Shown here piece by piece: positions 3,854 through 54,337 of a DNA stretch of 59,443 nucleotides. This DNA is from a virus (Duplodnaviria > Caudoviricetes), in the IMG/VR virus record IMGVR_UViG_3300042195_000136, positions 1 through 59,443 of that record, one strand, 5' to 3'. The notes under the pieces are model-generated. The model made no database searches, was not told the origin of the DNA, and was given only the letters and a program-made list of their open reading frames with translations. A program made the position numbers and the translations under genes. How positions within the stretch are numbered: the stretch's first letter is position 1; each line of letters begins with the position of its first letter.

Positions 3854-4437
3854 CCACCCCGACCCTGTTCACCCCGCGGGTTCCGGTCGCCACCACGGCG
3901 GCCGGGCCCCGGCCCCTGGTGATCGTGGCACTCGATGTCAGCCTCACCTGCACCGGCATCGCCGGAGTCGGCTGGACCGACCGCATCCGCACCAAACTCC
4001 GCGGCGACGAACGCCTCGCCTACCTCGAAACGGAGATCGCCTCCTTCATCCGGTCCGCCGATCTCGTCGCCATGGAAGGCCCCTCCTACGGGCACAGCGG
4101 CCCCCGCTTCCACGAAGACCTCGCCGGGCTCCGCGTCCTCGTCCGCCGCTACTGCCACCACCACCAGATCCCGTACGCCCTCGTCCCGCCGTCGAACCTG
4201 AAGCTCTACACGACGGGCCGTGGCAACGCCGGGAAGGGCGAGGTGCGTTCGGCGGTCGCCGACCGGTACGGCATCCACACGGAGGGCGTGGGCCGGTATG
4301 ACATGGCGGACGCCTACGGGGCGCTCGCTGCTGCGTCCGAGTGGCTGGGCCAGTCGCTGGCTGATGTGCCGGAGCGGAACCGGAAGGCGCTGGCTGGTTG
4401 CGCGTGGCCGGAGCGCGAGCAGGTGATCGCGCGGTGA
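3850..4437 (+). CDS. RuvC-like Holliday junction resolvase
   Basis: ALDVSLTCTG, VAMEG, GNAGK, ADAY acidic motifs. Confidence 0.8.
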   Translation: MTTPTLFTPRVPVATTAAGPRPLVIVALDVSLTCTGIAGVGWTDRIRTKLRGDERLAYLETEIASFIRSADLVAMEGPSYGHSGPRFHEDLAGLRVLVRRYCHHHQIPYALVPPSNLKLYTTGRGNAGKGEVRSAVADRYGIHTEGVGRYDMADAYGALAAASEWLGQSLADVPERNRKALAGCAWPEREQVIAR

Positions 4438-4682
4438 GTACCAGTCAGGCCCTCACCGTCACCGTGGCCGCCACCCTCGGCGCCCTCGCATGCGCTTGGC
4501 AGGCCATCCGCGCCTGGCGCGCCGACGACCGGTATGACGTCGGCCCGGATGCGCTGCGCCTCTTCGAAGACCTCGACGCGCACCTCGACGAACACGTCGC
4601 CGCGAACCCGGAGCTGGCGGCCGGCTTCGACCGGCTCCGCACCGCCATCCACGAACACCGAGAGGAGGACGGCACCCGATGA
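4434..4682 (+). CDS. Small hypothetical protein, N-terminal TM segment
   Basis: Coupled overlaps; hydrophobic N-terminus. Confidence 0.55.
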   Translation: MSTSQALTVTVAATLGALACAWQAIRAWRADDRYDVGPDALRLFEDLDAHLDEHVAANPELAAGFDRLRTAIHEHREEDGTR

Positions 4683-5932
4683 TCCTCGACGGCTTCGCCG
4701 GCCCCGGCGGCTGGTCCGAAGGCCTCCGCCTCCTCGGCCTCCGTGACATCGGCCTGGAGATGGACACCGCGGCCTGCCAGACCCGGGCCGCAGTCGGACA
4801 CCTGACGATCCAGTGCGACATCGCCCAGTACCCGACCACACCCTTCAAGGGCCGCAGCAAGAAGCAGATCTGGTCCCCGCCCTGCCAGGCCTGGTCACGG
4901 GCCGGCAAGGGCCTCGGCCTGGTCGACCAGCCGCTCGTACACCAGGCCGTCCATGACCTCGCCCACGGCCGCGACACCCGCACCGGGCTAGTCGCCGCGT
5001 GCAAGGACCCGCGGTCGCTGCTCGCCGCCGAGCCGATGCGCTGGCTGTATGACCTGCGCCCCGAGTGGGTGTGCATGGAAGAAGTCCCCGACGTCCTCCC
5101 GCTGTGGAAGCAGTACGCGCTGCACCTCCAGCAGTGGGGGTACAGCACTTGGGCCGGGATCCTCAACGCCGCCGACTACGGAGTCCCGCAGACCCGGCGC
5201 CGGGCAATCCTCATCGCCTCCCGGATGCGGCCCGTGACCGCGCCCGAACCCACGCACGCCGAACACGGCGAGGAAGCCGGCCTGTTCGGTCCCGGCCGGG
5301 CCCGTTGGGTGTCCATGGCCGAAGCCCTCGGCTGGGATGGCGGGCTGTTCGTGAACACACGTGGCGAGCGGAAGACGCCCGGGGGCAACGAGTTCCCGGC
5401 GGACGGCCCGGCCTGGTGCCTGACGGAAAAGACCCGATCGTGGGCACTGCGCAATGGCACGCAGAAGAACGCCGCCGTCCGTGAGCTGGACGAGCCGGCC
5501 GGGACGCTGTTCTTCGGGGCCCGCTGCAACGACGTCTCGTGGGTTCTGAGGAACGGCAATCAGCCGAATGCGGCGATACGCGAAGCAGGCCAGCCCGCGC
5601 CGACCATGGCGTTCGGCAACAACTCGGCCCGGATCGAGTGGGTTCAGCGGCGGCCGGCGACCACCGTGTGTGCCACCGACCGGATCGCGCCGCCCGGCCA
5701 CCGCGACCGGTCGCCGAGGGGCGAGTCGCAGTTCGCCAGCCCGGAAACGGTCCGCATCACGCAGGCGGAGGCCGCTGTCCTCCAGTCGTTCCCCGCCGAC
5801 TATCCGTGGCAGGGCAGCAAGACGAAGCAGTTCGAGCAGATCGGCAACGCGGTGCCGCCGCTGCTCGCCGCGCACATCGTGTCCGTTCCGACCGGCATCC
5901 CCGTGGGCGAGCTGCTGGGGGTGGCGTCGTGA
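4679..5932 (+). CDS. DNA (cytosine-5) methyltransferase
   Basis: FAGPGG (I), SPPCQ (IV), EEV (VI variant), PQTRRR (VIII), QIGNAVPP (X). Confidence 0.92.
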   Translation: MILDGFAGPGGWSEGLRLLGLRDIGLEMDTAACQTRAAVGHLTIQCDIAQYPTTPFKGRSKKQIWSPPCQAWSRAGKGLGLVDQPLVHQAVHDLAHGRDTRTGLVAACKDPRSLLAAEPMRWLYDLRPEWVCMEEVPDVLPLWKQYALHLQQWGYSTWAGILNAADYGVPQTRRRAILIASRMRPVTAPEPTHAEHGEEAGLFGPGRARWVSMAEALGWDGGLFVNTRGERKTPGGNEFPADGPAWCLTEKTRSWALRNGTQKNAAVRELDEPAGTLFFGARCNDVSWVLRNGNQPNAAIREAGQPAPTMAFGNNSARIEWVQRRPATTVCATDRIAPPGHRDRSPRGESQFASPETVRITQAEAAVLQSFPADYPWQGSKTKQFEQIGNAVPPLLAAHIVSVPTGIPVGELLGVAS

Positions 5933-6815: not shown

Positions 6816-7502
6816 ATGATCAACCTCGCCAAGGTCGAACAGCAGGCCCCCGGCCTCGTCAACCTCGCCAAAACCGCCGCCGTGTCCCTGGAAAAGCAAG
6901 GCCTCGCCGGGCAGCGCGCAGCCGTCCAACTCGTCCTCGACCACTCCGGCAGCATGCACCCCTACTACAACAACGGCGCCGTCCAGCGCCTCGCCGAACA
7001 AGCCCTCGGCCTGTCCGTGAACCTGGACGACGACGGCGCCGTGCCCGTCATCTTCTTCGGCTCCCACGTCGAGCAGTACGACGACGCCCGCCTCGACAAC
7101 TACGCGGGGATCATCGACCGCACCCACCCCAAGGTCCACTGGGGCTCGACGGACTACGTCGCCGGAATGCAGGCCGCGATCACCGAGTACCAGCAGTCCG
7201 GTGCCACCGATCCGGGCCTCGTCATCTTCCAGACGGACGGCGAGCCCGATGACCGTAAGGCCGTCGAGCGGCTGTTGCGGGAGGTGTCGACGCTGCCGAT
7301 CTTTTGGGCGTTCGTCGGGTTCGGCGGGCGCGTCGACTTCTTGGAGAAGCTCGACGGCCTGCGCCGCCGGGCCGTCGACAACGCGTCGTTCTTTCATGCC
7401 GCGAACCCGCACGCCGTCACCGACGCCCAGTTGTACGACGGCATCACCGCCGAGTTCGCCGGATGGCTGACTGCCGCGCGCACGGCCGGGATCCTCCGCT
7501 GA
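6816..7502 (+). CDS. vWA domain protein (TerF-associated vWA type)
   Basis: MIDAS DHSGSM, GSTDY, FQTDGEP, PIFWAFVGFG, VDNASFF. Confidence 0.85.
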   Translation: MINLAKVEQQAPGLVNLAKTAAVSLEKQGLAGQRAAVQLVLDHSGSMHPYYNNGAVQRLAEQALGLSVNLDDDGAVPVIFFGSHVEQYDDARLDNYAGIIDRTHPKVHWGSTDYVAGMQAAITEYQQSGATDPGLVIFQTDGEPDDRKAVERLLREVSTLPIFWAFVGFGGRVDFLEKLDGLRRRAVDNASFFHAANPHAVTDAQLYDGITAEFAGWLTAARTAGILR

Positions 7503-7547
7503 CCCTCTGACCGGCGGCCGGCCCGCACCCCCACGCGCCGACCGCCA

Positions 7548-7632
7548 CCGGGAGCCCGCCACCTCCCCGGCGGGCTCCCGGACCCCCAGCCACAGCAGCA
7601 GCACGAAGCCCCGCACCAGCACGGTGCGGGGC
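7548..7632. terminator. Two GC-rich hairpins between convergent genes
   Basis: CCGGGAGCCCGCC-N8-GGCGGGCTCCCGG (7548-7581) and GCCCCGCACC-N5-GGTGCGGGGC (7608-7632). Confidence 0.7.
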
Positions 7633-7657
7633 GAACGGAGAGGAGGACGAGGTGCGA

Positions 7658-7864
7658 TCAGGTATCGCTGAGTGCCACCCGCGCCCGCTCGTACCACTCG
7701 GGCGTGACGACGTACGCCCGGCGCTCGCCGCGCTCGGTGAACGCCGCGACTTGCGCGTCTTCCCTGACTCGCCGGATGAGGCGCGTGAGGTTCGCGCGGG
7801 CGTCGGTCATCGAGACCTCGGCGACGCCGTCCTCTGCGGTCTGGATGCCCTGCTCAACAGCCAT
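7658..7864 (-). CDS. Phd/YefM-family antitoxin-like DNA-binding protein (orphan)
   Basis: EVSMTDARANLTRLIRRV...FTERGERRAYVV; TACACT -10 six nt upstream suggests a leaderless start at 7864. Confidence 0.75.
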   Translation of the reverse strand: MAVEQGIQTAEDGVAEVSMTDARANLTRLIRRVREDAQVAAFTERGERRAYVVTPEWYERARVALSDT

Positions 7865-21314: not shown

Positions 21315-21488
21315 ATGTGCCGTGACACCCGCACCACCGAACAAATCCAAAACGCCATCACCGCCGAGGCCACCCTCGCCCGCCAGATCGAAGACGACCC
21401 CATGTCCACCCCGCAGCAGCGCGACCTCGCCGACAAGCTCCACGAGCAGATGAACGCCGAACTGGAAACGCTCGACTGCCGCCGCTGA
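21315..21488 (+). CDS. Small hypothetical protein (transfer module)
   Basis: GGAG RBS and ATG. Confidence 0.5.
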   Translation: MCRDTRTTEQIQNAITAEATLARQIEDDPMSTPQQRDLADKLHEQMNAELETLDCRR

Positions 21489-21578
21489 CCGGTAGCCCTC
21501 GGCGCGCGTCCCCACCCGGTACGCGCGCCCTGGAGATCCGGCCAGACCCATCCGCCCCGACCACACCCGGAGACCGCA

Positions 21579-21818
21579 ATGCGAAGCCACCTGCTCCGCA
21601 ACCTCCTCATCGGCGCCCTCCTCGTCCTCGCCGCCATGCACCCCGAAACCGCCAACACCATCGCGCAACTCGCCGCCGGGATGGTCCTCGCCATCGTCAC
21701 CGGCATCGCCGAAGCCGCCGCCCACCAGCCCGAGGCCGCGCTCCTCACCGCCGGCGCCTGCTACATCGCCCACCAGATCCGCACCCACCGCCCCCGCACC
21801 GCCCGCGCCCGCCACTAA
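21579..21818 (+). CDS. Small membrane protein (Spd-like)
   Basis: Hydrophobic, 79 aa, upstream of Spd/TraB genes. Confidence 0.6.
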   Translation: MRSHLLRNLLIGALLVLAAMHPETANTIAQLAAGMVLAIVTGIAEAAAHQPEAALLTAGACYIAHQIRTHRPRTARARH

Positions 21819-21833
21819 CCTCGGAGCCTCGAA

Positions 21834-22715
21834 ATGAACCGCGACGACCTCTACGCCCGCGCCACCGCAGTCATCGACGCCAAGCACGACAAGAGCACCG
21901 CCCGCAAACGCGGCGCCCTCGACACCGCCATCCTCGGCACCGTCCCCGTCCTCGCCGTCGCCGTAGCCTTCGCCTCCGGCTGGTCCCTCTACGACCTCGG
22001 CCGGCACTTCCACATGCCCGGCTGGGCCGCGTGGGCCGTGTTCGCGCTCATCGACGTCGTGTGGTTCCAGTCCGCGATCGTCGTCATCAAAAACCAGCAG
22101 TCACCACACCGGGCGATCGAAGCCCACAAGCGGATGCAAGGTATGTTCGCCGTGTCGGTCGCCGCGAACTTCGCCCACGGCCTGATCCTCTTCGGGGCCA
22201 CCGTGAACGGGTTCGTTGCGGGCGCGGTGTTCGCGCTGTTCCCGATCGGGTTCAAGGCGGCGTTCTCCAACGCCTTCCCCGACTACGTCAAGCGCGCCCG
22301 CAACGCCGGGTACGGGGGCGAACTGGAGAAGGCGTTCCACACCGAGGCGCTGATGTTCATCATGGCGGGCGTGGACCAGGTGAAGGCCGAACTCGGCCAA
22401 GCGCCGGACCGGCCGCAGGTCACCGTGGACCGCACACCGGACCGCCCCGAGTCCACGCTGGTTAAGCCTCCTGACCAGGCGGTGAACCAGATCGAGGCCA
22501 TCCCTGAACCGGCCCCGGTTCAGCCGGTCCAGGCCGCGGTGAACCGGCCGGATCAGCCGGTTCAGATCGACGACCAGGTCAACGAACTCCTTCGTCGTCT
22601 CAAGCTCGGCGAGCACATCACCAAGCCGACGGCAGCCAAGATCCTCGGCATCCCCGAGTCCACCGCGTACCGGCGTCTCACTGCCGCCCAGGCGCTCCTG
22701 AACCAGTACCGCTGA
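21834..22715 (+). CDS. Spd-like spread protein: 4 TM, Pro-rich linker, C-terminal HTH
   Basis: Four hydrophobic helices, SVAANFAH motif, TKPTAAKILGIPESTAYRRL. Confidence 0.7.
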   Translation: MNRDDLYARATAVIDAKHDKSTARKRGALDTAILGTVPVLAVAVAFASGWSLYDLGRHFHMPGWAAWAVFALIDVVWFQSAIVVIKNQQSPHRAIEAHKRMQGMFAVSVAANFAHGLILFGATVNGFVAGAVFALFPIGFKAAFSNAFPDYVKRARNAGYGGELEKAFHTEALMFIMAGVDQVKAELGQAPDRPQVTVDRTPDRPESTLVKPPDQAVNQIEAIPEPAPVQPVQAAVNRPDQPVQIDDQVNELLRRLKLGEHITKPTAAKILGIPESTAYRRLTAAQALLNQYR

Positions 22716-22778
22716 CCGTCCGGCCGCCCCGGCCCCCGCTACACGCGGGGGCTCGCCTGTCTCTGCGGAGCCCCCACC

Positions 22779-24539
22779 GTGAAGATCGACCGCGTCGACA
22801 TCATCACCGCCATCACCGTCCCCAGCATCGTCTCCGCAGCAGCCCTGACCGCCGACGGCGTCTACGGCACCACCGCAGCCGCCATCGAGTTCGGCACCGC
22901 CCTCGCGGCAGGGAAGCTGTCGTTCGTGTCCTTCGCGAAGAAGTGGCCAGCCTCGCTCGCCTGGGGCAGCCTCGCTCTCGCCGGCGTCTCCACGCAGGCG
23001 TGGCTCACCGGCACGGTCGGCGGGTTCGCCGCCCTGTACGGGTACGCCATCAGCGCGGCCGCCGTGTTCGGGGCGATGGTCAAGCACCGGCACGACGCCC
23101 GCCACGACCAGGTCAAGCTGGACCACGAGTCGGTGAAGCTGAACACCGCGCTTATCCGGCAGCAGATGGCCCACCATGCCCTGGTTCAGAAGACCGCGCC
23201 CGAACCAGTCCAGTCCGGACCGAACCTGACCGGCCGGACCGTGGAAGAAACGCGCCTGCGGACCGTGGTCCATGAACTGTTCACGGCCGAACTGCCGGGC
23301 TGCACCGTGGAACGGACCCGCACCGGCTGGACCGCCGTCCTGGACCTGCCGGTGAACCTGGACCGAAACAAGCTCAAGTCCGCCTGGCCCAGGGTCGCCT
23401 CGGGGATGGGCGTGGCCGGGGAGTTCATGCTGGAAGACGGGGCGCTCACGAACCAGCTCATCGCCCGGTTCATCGACGGCGACCCCCTCGAAGCCGTGGT
23501 CCCGTACCAGCGGTTCACCGCAGGCCGGTTCACCGACCCGATCACGCTCGGCGTGGACCGGTTCCTGAACCCGGTCACCGTTGAACTGGCCTACGCCCAC
23601 GCCCTCGTCGCTGGTTCATCCAAGTTCGGGAAGTCCACCCTGGTTCGGTCCATCGTCCTCCAGCTCGCGGACCGGCCCGACATCGTGGTCTACGGCGTCG
23701 ACCTCAAACCGGGTGCGCCGGAGATGACGCCGATGCTGCCGATCCTCCAAGATCTCGCGCAGACCCCGGAGCAGGCGCACGCCTTCCTCGACTGGCTGAA
23801 GGCCGAGTTGCAGGAGCGCGGCGAGATCCTCGCCGCCGCTGGTGACCAGGAGTGGGACCCGGTCAAGCACGGTCGGCCTGCACTGTGGGCGGTGTTCGAC
23901 GAGCTGGGCGAGCTGGTCCGGCAGGCCGACGTGGGTGAGTGGAAGAGGGATCCGGCGTCGAAGAAGCTGGAATCTCTGCTCGCTTTGGCCCGGTTCGCGG
24001 GCATTCATCTGATCGCCGCCACCCAGCAGCCGTCCCGGAAAGTCTTCGGCGGGACCACCGACGCCCGCGGCAACTACAGCGTCCGCATCAGCACGCGCAT
24101 GGCGGACCGCGACCACCGCCGGTTCATCTTCGGCACCACCCCCGGATGGGAACCCGGCGACCTCGACGCGCCCGGAAAGTTCCTCCTCCAGTCCCCGGAC
24201 CACCAGCAGCCGGCCCCGTACAAGGGCATGTGGCTGACGAAGGACGAGTTCACGGCGGAGGTCGCCCGGATCGGCGCGGATACGGTGAAGGCGCCGGTGG
24301 GGAAGCGGCTGGTCCTGCCCGTCAGCGGGGGGACGAATCAGGACAAGGTGAGGGCCGCGCTGGCGAAGTACGGGAACTGCACACGCCGCGAGCTGGAGGC
24401 CGCGACCGGGCTCACGGAGAAGCAGGTACTCGATGCGGCCCGTGCGCTCGGCCCGGAAGTGGAGCGCTGCGCCGACACCCAGACGTGGCGGATCCTGCCA
24501 GCGAAGGCGTGGGAGGCGCAGGCCATAGCGACGCAGTGA
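22779..24539 (+). CDS. traB: TraB-type FtsK/SpoIIIE conjugative DNA translocase
   Basis: N-terminal TMs, GSSKFGKS Walker A, VDLK, VFDE Walker B, ARFAGIHLIAATQQPS, C-terminal wHTH (TRRELEAATGLT). Confidence 0.85.
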   Translation: MKIDRVDIITAITVPSIVSAAALTADGVYGTTAAAIEFGTALAAGKLSFVSFAKKWPASLAWGSLALAGVSTQAWLTGTVGGFAALYGYAISAAAVFGAMVKHRHDARHDQVKLDHESVKLNTALIRQQMAHHALVQKTAPEPVQSGPNLTGRTVEETRLRTVVHELFTAELPGCTVERTRTGWTAVLDLPVNLDRNKLKSAWPRVASGMGVAGEFMLEDGALTNQLIARFIDGDPLEAVVPYQRFTAGRFTDPITLGVDRFLNPVTVELAYAHALVAGSSKFGKSTLVRSIVLQLADRPDIVVYGVDLKPGAPEMTPMLPILQDLAQTPEQAHAFLDWLKAELQERGEILAAAGDQEWDPVKHGRPALWAVFDELGELVRQADVGEWKRDPASKKLESLLALARFAGIHLIAATQQPSRKVFGGTTDARGNYSVRISTRMADRDHRRFIFGTTPGWEPGDLDAPGKFLLQSPDHQQPAPYKGMWLTKDEFTAEVARIGADTVKAPVGKRLVLPVSGGTNQDKVRAALAKYGNCTRRELEAATGLTEKQVLDAARALGPEVERCADTQTWRILPAKAWEAQAIATQ

Positions 24540-24564
24540 ACGTGCAGGTCAGCGGCCAGTTTCA

Positions 24565-24643
24565 GGGGGTCGGATAGGGGGTCGGCTCGGGGCGTGGTCA
24601 CGGTCGGGTTGAGGGTCGGCCGCTCGCCCCGGGTTCCGACCCC
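24565..24643 (+). repeat. clt-like short direct repeats after traB
   Basis: GGGGGTCGG at 24565 and 24577; GGTCGG variants near 24602 and 24614; inverted CCGACCCC at 24636. Confidence 0.5.
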
Positions 24644-24760
24644 GAACTCCCGGCCGGCCTGCCACACTGAGTCTGCGCGCCGGGTCACGCCCGGCACCCC
24701 CGAGGAGGCCTCGCTGTTCGTCCCCCCGACGGCGAGGCCTTCGCCTGTTTCCGCCCGCAC

Positions 24761-53443: not shown

Positions 53444-54337
53444 TCAAAGATCACCCAGATTCAGCCCCCGCGCCTCATCGGCAGCACGCTTCGCCGCCGT
53501 TGCCCGCGTATACCGATCAATCATGTCCCGCCGCGACCACCCAGCCACCGCCATCAACCCCCCCTCCGACCCACCCCGCTGAAGCCACCTCCCAGCCGCC
53601 GTATGCCGCAAAACGTGCGGATGAAAATCAGGGATGCCAGCCAGGAAGGCGCGCCGCACGAGACTGTCGTACAAGCCCGAGTAGCCGATGGTCTTACCGC
53701 GGTCCCCGAGCCACAGATCCGGGCCGGAAGCCAGCCGGTGGGCCCGACGCAGACGCAGATACCGGTCAACCGCCCGGCACGTCTGCGGGCCGATCGGGAT
53801 GGTGCGCCCCTTCCCCCCCTTGCCGCGGCGCACGACCGCGGTACCAGCGGACAAGTCGATGTCGCCTACTTCCATCGCGACGACTTCACCGATCCTCACC
53901 CCGGTCTCGATCATCAGTCGAATGATTGCCTCGTCGCGGCGTTCCCAGAAGTCCTTGCCGGCGCACGCCTTGACCAACGCGCGGAGCTGGTCGTCGGATA
54001 GTTCAGGGATAATTTTGCTATCAAGCTTGGGCGGCTTCAGACCCACCAGCGGGTCGCTGTCGAGCTCTCCCTCCTCGGCCAGCCATGCGGAGAACCGGCG
54101 GAGGGACAACTGCCGGGAGCGGGCTGTGGCAGCCTCTGCGCCGTCGTCGAGGAGATCTGCGACGAAGGCGTTCACTACGGCTCGTGCGAGGTCAGGCTCG
54201 CGGCCGGTGCGCTCGCACCAGGCGATGAAGCGTTTGATGCCGTCGGTGTAGGTCTTCACGGTCTGCTGGCTTTTGCGTTCGGCGCGTAGGTGGAGGGTCC
54301 AGGAGTCGAGGAGTCTGCGCATGTCGTCGGTGGTCAT
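53444..54337 (-). CDS. int: Tyrosine integrase
   Basis: RDEAI..L..TG.R..E, GKGGKGR, HVLRHT, AGW, RY. Confidence 0.95.
   Translation of the reverse strand: MTTDDMRRLLDSWTLHLRAERKSQQTVKTYTDGIKRFIAWCERTGREPDLARAVVNAFVADLLDDGAEAATARSRQLSLRRFSAWLAEEGELDSDPLVGLKPPKLDSKIIPELSDDQLRALVKACAGKDFWERRDEAIIRLMIETGVRIGEVVAMEVGDIDLSAGTAVVRRGKGGKGRTIPIGPQTCRAVDRYLRLRRAHRLASGPDLWLGDRGKTIGYSGLYDSLVRRAFLAGIPDFHPHVLRHTAAGRWLQRGGSEGGLMAVAGWSRRDMIDRYTRATAAKRAADEARGLNLGDL

Follow-up and report, generated by a model that had tools for sequence, protein, structure and literature searches.

A conserved field of short DNA words within the spd-like and traB genes of a temperate Streptomyces siphophage and its candidate membrane-anchored reader

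What could read an 8-bp word that is repeated many times, in both orientations, inside the coding sequences of two neighbouring phage genes? This question is raised by the IMG/VR virus record IMGVR_UViG_3300042195_000136, a single contig of 59443 bp (G+C 65-72%), which was analysed over its whole length and is referred to below as the window. Judged from its genes, the element is a temperate Streptomyces siphophage, since it carries virion and replication genes together with a tyrosine integrase, and its traB gene has relatives embedded in Streptomyces contigs. On the plus strand, a gene for a 293-aa Spd-like protein (21834 to 22715) is followed by traB (22779 to 24539), encoding a 586-aa FtsK/SpoIIIE-type double-stranded DNA (dsDNA) translocase, and the word YGRACCRG accumulates in both. 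An earlier note, made from the sequence alone, had taken this accumulation for a DNA-level, centromere-like field bound either by the helix-turn-helix (HTH) of the Spd-like protein or by the winged HTH (wHTH) of TraB. We report here that the array is real, resides at the DNA level and is conserved among relatives, that the class of its word tracks the HTH of the Spd-like protein, and that a second array, located behind traB, tracks the recognition helix of TraB.

Counted on both strands, YGRACCRG occurs 53 times in the window, and 17 of these copies lie within 22370-23655, giving 13.2 copies per kb in the field versus 0.89 per kb for the window (about 15-fold). The genome holds no other cluster of the word, as every other 1.3-kb stretch contains 4 copies or fewer, and the 35 copies observed outside the field are at the expectation of a third-order Markov model (37.4). 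The word was also recovered by de novo k-mer ranking, with TGAACC found 13 times in the field versus 25 times in the remaining 58 kb, and TGGACC 10 times versus 38 times elsewhere. Its flanks are likewise constrained: position -1 is Y in 35 of 37 field sites (background 0.59) and position +5 is R in 31 of 37 (background 0.58), these flanking Y, R and G positions being informative inside the field only. All motif copies quoted in the earlier note are present, and the clustering that it had described as centromere-like is borne out; as for the run that it placed near 23341-23366, the GRACC core matches are there while strict 8-mers are not. When the core GRACC is considered, 36 sites are found between 22373 and 23673. 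Array 1a (22373 to 22563) comprises 10 cores, 8 of which are strict YGRACCRG, in linker-coding DNA of the Spd-like gene, in mixed orientation (++++++--+-), and one additional copy of the word lies past it at 22699-22706. Array 1b (23120 to 23673) comprises 25 cores in traB codons 114 to 298 approximately, mostly on the plus strand up to 23450 and mostly on the minus strand from 23467.

Such words could have no function as DNA and merely be the by-product of a repetitive, proline/glutamine-rich peptide combined with codon bias. Indeed, with the amino acid sequence alone, GRACC is already about 2.7 times as frequent as in the genome on average (null of 9.6 per 600 bp versus 5.9 per kb in the window), and 9 of the 10 sites in the linker fall in the same codon phase. 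Against codon-shuffled nulls, generated by synonymous resampling and by permutation (500 each), the excess nevertheless persists. In the spd linker (22370-22600), 10 GRACC were observed versus 4.6 and 4.9 expected, a number reached by 1/500 and 0/500 shuffles, respectively; in traB (23100-23700), 25 were observed versus 9.6 and 12.0 expected (0/500 in both nulls). The part of spd coding for the transmembrane (TM) segments, and the N-terminal and 3' parts of traB, are at the null. Moreover, the traB sites occupy all three codon phases and both strands. An exclusively protein-level origin of the words was rejected on the basis of the synonymous shuffles and of this spread over codon phases, and the enrichment and DNA-level character asserted in the earlier note both hold. 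Residues as well as codons appear to be bent towards the word, because the protein sequence is already rich in motif-compatible dipeptides and the codons add a further excess.

As to geometry, the centres of the 10 linker sites (22373-22563) follow an 11.0-bp period (R = 0.80), as if on one helix face, a value which comes from an uncorrected scan of many periods under codon-phase constraint and is suggestive only. No period was found in the traB part of the field. There (23120-23673), the orientation flips from mostly plus to mostly minus near 23460, a convergent layout that 20 of the 25 sites fit (permutation p = 0.015). The palindromic full site GRACCGGTYC is present as a single copy, at 23555. 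Words of 8 bp are also known from FtsK and its FtsK-orienting polar sequences (KOPS) and from SpoIIIE and its SpoIIIE recognition sequences (SRS), where they are read by the winged helix of an FtsK-family pump and are distributed genome-wide with a strand skew. The present field resembles KOPS/SRS in word length and in the orientation bias of its traB part, but differs from them in forming one local cluster, in being at expectation elsewhere, and in not matching the winged helix of the pump.

The comparison was extended to Streptomyces prophages and soil viral contigs, yielding 35 rows, namely the window and 34 loci (two pairs of which are probably the same prophage recorded twice), with about 5 kb of flank compared on each side of each relative. 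The YGRACCRG field is present at the same places in 27 of the 35 rows. For 14 IMG/VR relatives, whose TraB proteins are 71-97% identical, the codon-shuffle test was repeated (300 shuffles). In the traB field, 13 of these 14 and the window itself showed an excess (23-28 sites versus 10.5-14.0 expected; 0/300), the rest of traB being at the null in all 15, and the linkers were enriched in 12 of the 13 tested (9 at 0/300 and 3 at 1-7/300), the exception being locus L006. Site positions and orientations are largely common to relatives over this range of TraB identity. A further 2-2.6-fold excess over synonymous shuffles, seen in 14 of the 15 loci, again argues against the words being a by-product of the peptide.

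Seven relatives, namely L006/L032 and more distant loci drawn from genome and viral collections, bear other words at the field position, which fall into a class B, with arrays of GTCCGGAC (L024, L044, L046 and L006/L032), and a class C, with arrays of GGCTCAG (L025, L043 and L045), the YGRACCRG field being class A. The class B word, scored as GTCCGGA/TCCGGAC, was counted 17 times in the field of L024 versus 0 in the other 10 kb of the locus, 13 versus 1 in L044 and 18 versus 1 in L046, and the class C word GGCTCAG(C) 8 versus 1 in L025, 10 versus 2 in L043 and 7 versus 0 in L045. For each of the 7 class B and C loci, the class word is more frequent in the spd gene than in any of 500 codon permutations. 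In traB, the excess of the own-class word is marginal in class B and absent in class C, with few or no sites, and the class B and C arrays are restricted to the final 160-390 bp that precede the traB start. The conserved core of the system would thus be the array in linker-coding DNA just 5' of the HTH-coding DNA, because it is in spd that classes B and C show their excess, and traB appears to have been colonised by the array only in the class A lineage. The linker peptide shifts with the word, reading VDQ/PDR/PVQ in class A, QDSPD/SGRP in class B and AQ/LS in class C, and it is kept across unrelated membrane domains. These two observations, a different word at the same place with a peptide altered to fit and a linker maintained irrespective of the membrane part, complete the case against a mere by-product, which we regard as highly improbable.

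The earlier note had suggested comparing motif and HTH across spd homologues, and the two proved to change together. The C-terminal helix of the Spd-like protein reads STAYRRL in the 25 class A rows, RLRPDL..DSxRR in the 4 class B rows and ATAKRYL in the 3 class C rows, so that word class and C-terminal HTH class match in 32 of 32 readable rows, which represent about 3-4 independent events and not 32. Three of the 35 rows were left unscored, two having no upstream DNA and the third, L047, having a C-terminus that fits none of the three patterns. Within class A, the recognition helix S-T-A-Y-R-R-L is unvarying in 18 of 18 Spd-like sequences. The membrane domain assorts independently of class, as the type-2 N-terminus occurs in all three classes, and type 3 in both A and B. 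The unscored L047 locus, designated class D, has weakly enriched words of its own, CGAACACG and TCGCGAAC (4 versus 0 each).

A natural mosaic bears on what reads the words. The L006/L032 sequence matches the window at 98.9% identity as far as base 21831, which lies three bases short of the spd start; over spd it shares no nucleotide similarity with the window, over the traB field its identity is 61-78%, and from 23636, the end of the field, it returns to 93-100%. The exchanged block brings a class-B spd with six TCCGGA sites in the linker and four in traB, and the TraB winged helix, which lies outside the block, is that of the window. It is conceivable that the words are read by another lineage-variable factor, be it a phage protein encoded outside the compared flanks, which span about 5 kb per side, a protein of the host, or a system of restriction-modification or methylation. 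Genes for at least two DNA methyltransferases are present in the genome, and the words of classes B and C form perfect or near-perfect palindromes; TCCGGA and GCTNAGC resemble type II palindromes. The mosaic, however, has window-like flanks with only the spd-to-field block swapped, so that a reader encoded elsewhere would be mismatched. Furthermore, a 15-fold local enrichment is the opposite of restriction-site avoidance, and the genome-wide counts outside the field are at expectation. We consider such an outside reader improbable.

As a separate observation, L032, which belongs to the same contig as L006, carries at 3923-4945, between the class-B spd and traB, an extra open reading frame (ORF) that encodes a MUG113/T5orf172 domain together with an A-like HTH. 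The same T5orf172 domain is present in class-C Spd-like proteins, between the membrane part and the linker.

Another candidate reader is TraB itself, and the field would then be a classical clt, a cluster of 8-bp TraB recognition sequences (TRS) bound by the C-terminal winged helix to load the translocase. In the Streptomyces plasmids pSVH1, pJV1, pIJ101 and pWTY27, clt is described as 8-bp repeats at the 3' end of the tra gene, read by helix alpha-3 of the TraB winged helix (PMC4447253, PMC4170104, PMC3583192). As in these loci, short 8-bp words are clustered here beside and inside a traB gene whose product is FtsK-like and has a predicted C-terminal winged helix, and clustered 7-9-bp repeats beside the tra gene are found both in the YGRACCRG field (36 GRACC cores) and in a second array at 24566-24643. 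The field differs from plasmid clt in lying upstream and in the 5' half of traB, in its mixed orientation, and in lacking covariation with the winged helix. Indeed, helix 3 and the wing of TraB are identical in L038 and L013 (class A), L024 (class B) and L025 (class C), that is, in loci with YGRACCRG, GTCCGGAC and GGCTCAG fields, and the L032 mosaic keeps the winged helix of the window yet has a class-B field. The proposal that the TraB wHTH reads YGRACCRG was accordingly abandoned, and we judge a clt role for the field very improbable.

A better candidate for clt emerged from a search for words clustered at a common position across all classes. GGGTCGG repeats start about 26 bp past the traB stop codon and form array 2 (24566 to 24643), with 4 direct and 1 inverted copies of GGGTCGG-type 7-8-mers in non-coding DNA; these 78 bp contain 4 of the 32 copies of GGGTCGG/CCGACCC in the window. 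The word of this array co-varies with helix 3 of TraB (33 rows): (i) EKQVLDA[AT]RAL goes with GGTCGG (3-5 copies; 16/16 rows), (ii) ERQVLKA..GL with GGTCCC/GGGACC (at least 2 copies; 11/12 rows), (iii) DKQVRDAAGAL with GGGTG[GA]A (2-4 copies; 4/4 rows), and (iv) DKQVLRALQGL with GGTCTC (4 copies; 1/1 row). Both main helix-3 types occur with field classes A, B and C, and for this reason the TraB winged helix cannot set the specificity of the field. In layout and in its covariation with alpha-3, array 2 agrees with the plasmid loci and is probably the true clt of this phage, which suggests two recognition pairs that reassort independently as separate modules.

Beyond array 2, the 11-mer CTGCCACACTG (24659-24669) is unique in the window, and CTGCCACACTG or CTGCGACACTG was found 105-155 bp past the traB stop codon in 20 of 32 related loci, whatever their array class, followed in many of them by a CCGGG...CCCGG hairpin. 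The ORF located 3' of the clt-like region probably starts at ATG 24813, with a lipoprotein-like signal (MRRTATVVFAVVALALAGCS), rather than at 24594.

What, then, would be the reader of the YGRACCRG field? The Spd-like protein has about 4 TM segments (aa 28-135), a P/Q/V/D-rich linker and a C-terminal three-helix HTH (encoded at about 22566-22712). It scores 20.4 bits against DUF2637 (PF10935), under the Pfam gathering threshold of 22.8, and its L047 counterpart 19.7. Among its 145 homologues in the database none has a functional family name, most being called "hypothetical protein" with a few generic automatic labels; one bears PF10935 and several bear PF27080. Searches by tblastn of plasmid and phage record collections returned no match. 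The HTH is predicted to face the cytoplasm from the even number of TM segments and the basic N-terminus. TraB presents, in part by prediction, all hallmarks of its family, namely N-terminal TM segments, an FtsK/SpoIIIE motor (Walker A near 23613; Pfam FtsK_SpoIIIE, 53.3 bits; FtsK/SpoIIIE-like in PHROG) and a C-terminal wHTH (24300-24536), and is 38% identical to FtsK/SpoIIIE proteins of Streptomyces plasmids. In the AlphaFold2 (AF2) model, its last 79 aa adopt an H-H-H-strand-strand fold with a predicted local distance difference test (pLDDT) score above 90, for which the best Foldseek rows were winged-helix regulators at E of about 0.02, none reaching E ≤ 0.001.

We favour, with moderate confidence, the interpretation that the YGRACCRG field is a cis-acting array for the HTH of the membrane-anchored Spd-like protein, serving as a DNA handle or tether. 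The Spd-like HTH would bind sites written into its own linker-coding DNA, and in the lineage of the window this array would have spread into the first half of traB. With the protein in the membrane and its HTH in the cytoplasm, many copies could cover the array and keep the DNA of the phage or prophage at the membrane, next to the TraB pump, the membrane-held array acting as a handle by which DNA is spread or segregated. TraB would be addressed separately, its winged helix reading the GGGTCGG repeats 3' of traB and TraB being loaded at this putative clt.

Several points weigh against this interpretation. The HTH-coding DNA lies 0-300 bp from the array, so that part of the covariation could be simple linkage, a concern made more acute by the small number of independent events behind the word classes. 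The ORF inserted in L032 encodes an A-like STAYRRL helix without an A-type array, the field of this locus containing 3 YGRACCRG. The AF2 model of aa 225-293 of the Spd-like protein is a confident three-helix HTH (pLDDT above 90), which speaks for the interpretation, but while its best Foldseek rows are HTH domains, none reaches E ≤ 0.001. Synonymous diversity at third positions is 0.119 inside the cores versus 0.282 in the field and 0.355 outside, a difference that is confounded by codon bias and lends little weight; conservation of rare codons, tried as a proof of DNA-level selection, was uninformative (kept at 32/90 inside versus 119/415 outside). In more distant TraB contexts, the 130-kb Streptomyces plasmid NZ_CP070374 and phage Gilgamesh, no comparable array was convincing. 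Finally, none of the results separates a tether from an operator function.

The latter alternative keeps the same binding pair and assigns the array the role of an operator field by which the Spd-like HTH would repress or time the spd-traB operon, restraining a potentially toxic TraB in a kil-kor-like manner. The class B and C arrays, confined as they are to the stretch before the traB start, sit where a traB promoter could be located. Streptomyces plasmids are reported to keep traB under a dedicated repressor, unregulated traB being toxic (PMC4447253), and no TraR/GntR-type gene was seen adjoining traB in the window. On the other hand, 10-36 sites over up to 1.3 kb of coding DNA are far beyond the usual need of an operator, class A has 25 sites 3' of the traB start codon, and a membrane-fixed repressor would be unusual. 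No sigma-70-like promoter was found in 21400-24700 by a scan that covers the diversity of Streptomyces promoters poorly. We consider the operator function unlikely on balance, if by some distance the most serious of the alternatives.

Arrays of this kind have counterparts among plasmid centromeres. ParR/parC, SopB/sopC and ParB/parS all consist of many closely spaced short sites bound by an HTH protein encoded alongside. The present locus resembles them in its iterated sites beside the gene of a candidate HTH binder, and its specificity classes could be incompatibility determinants. It differs in that the candidate binder is an integral membrane protein and that the sites lie inside coding DNA, and no ParA/ParM-type motor was found in scans of the window proteins.

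The closest precedents are two systems of Streptomyces plasmids, TraB/clt and, nearest of all, SpdA2/sps. SpdA2 of pIJ101 is reported to bind a 12-bp palindrome which is repeated inside its own coding region and matches a peptide motif, and SpdA2/sps affects segregational stability (PMC4170104, PMC4447253). According to the same sources, SpdA interacts with TraB and with Spd proteins, and Thoma et al. (2014) speculate that it links DNA to the translocation apparatus. The synonymous-recoding test has already been carried out for sps, and the SpdA proteins described there, of 117-163 aa, carry their DNA-binding region at the N-terminus and go with a 12-bp palindrome that is conserved between plasmids and present in 1-3 copies (PMC4170104). 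In both systems the sites lie inside the gene of the binder, here a candidate one, and are mirrored in the peptide, as SRDD/E there and as V/P-D/N-Q/R and P-V-Q here; this was found in classes A, B and C. Neither a 117-163-aa protein with an N-terminal DNA-binding region nor a conserved 12-bp palindrome is found at our locus. Its novelty relative to SpdA2/sps would therefore lie in (i) protein architecture, the Spd-like proteins having about 290-450 aa, a membrane anchor and a C-terminal HTH (compared by description only), (ii) site length and number, with 8-36 copies of an 8-bp word, (iii) diversification into at least 3 word classes, (iv) invasion of traB, into which the array spills, and (v) residence in a tailed temperate phage. 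Our literature searches found no account of a clt or Spd-type array on a phage.

Actinophage annotations routinely include FtsK-like genes. In the portions of two papers on which we draw, such genes are mentioned in passing and their function is only guessed at (PMC11536984, PMC13587820). The locus described here gives a phage FtsK-like gene a candidate cis address, in the form of the clt-like array, and a partner membrane protein with a co-evolving array of its own, and opens to direct test the idea that phage DNA in mycelial bacteria spreads without virions or segregates while anchored to the membrane. In addition, it would be a clean case from nature in which a DNA-binding code overrides protein sequence, with the word shaping both the linker peptide and a portion of TraB. 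Tentatively, and with confidence well below even, we propose that a family of temperate Streptomyces siphophages carries a complete, self-addressed DNA-spreading module of the conjugation type with two independently evolving address labels. If so, the parts of the module would be a small TM protein, the membrane HTH protein, TraB and clt; the first label would be a membrane-tethering "centromere" in coding DNA, read by the Spd-like HTH, and the second the TRS/clt read by TraB. The phage genome might then pass, as naked dsDNA and without virions, from one hyphal compartment to another or into adjacent mycelia, and the 3-4 by 4 specificity classes might constitute incompatibility or exclusivity groups among co-resident prophages and integrative and conjugative elements of actinomycetes (AICEs).

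The small TM protein of this module is a hydrophobic 79-aa product, encoded on the plus strand at 21579 to 21818 as the first gene of the conserved three-gene unit, with one Kyte-Doolittle TM peak and no match in a Pfam scan. In 9 out of 11 relatives inspected, covering classes A, B and C, a homologue (49-99% identity) lies directly 5' of the Spd-like gene. In the spacer between spd and traB (22716-22778), there is an inverted repeat rich in G+C (GCCCCCGC...GCGGGGGC) that lacks a T run and for which the terminator scan made no call.

The phage nature of the element, stated in the earlier note, was confirmed by its virion and integrase genes. The structural and lysis genes comprise a terminase large subunit, a portal, a head protease, a major head protein, a lambda-like tail tube and an endolysin, and the genes of DNA metabolism a replication initiator, a Rad52-like recombinase, an exonuclease, a helicase and the methyltransferases referred to above. 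The tyrosine integrase is encoded on the minus strand at 53444 to 54337 (Pfam Phage_integrase, 91.6 bits), and the Streptomyces contigs that hold relatives of the window traB reach 634 kb. No nucleotide similarity to deposited phages was found. In phage Gilgamesh (L049), five copies of GATGGGAT lie in about 400 bp (7454-7850), a few kb from the FtsK-like gene, and this word occurs nowhere else in the 8-kb Gilgamesh stretch. In the window, a tRNA-Arg(CCG) gene (2398-2478) overlaps the 3' end of the provisional exonuclease ORF (1664-2458), the stop codon of which is probably mis-assigned.

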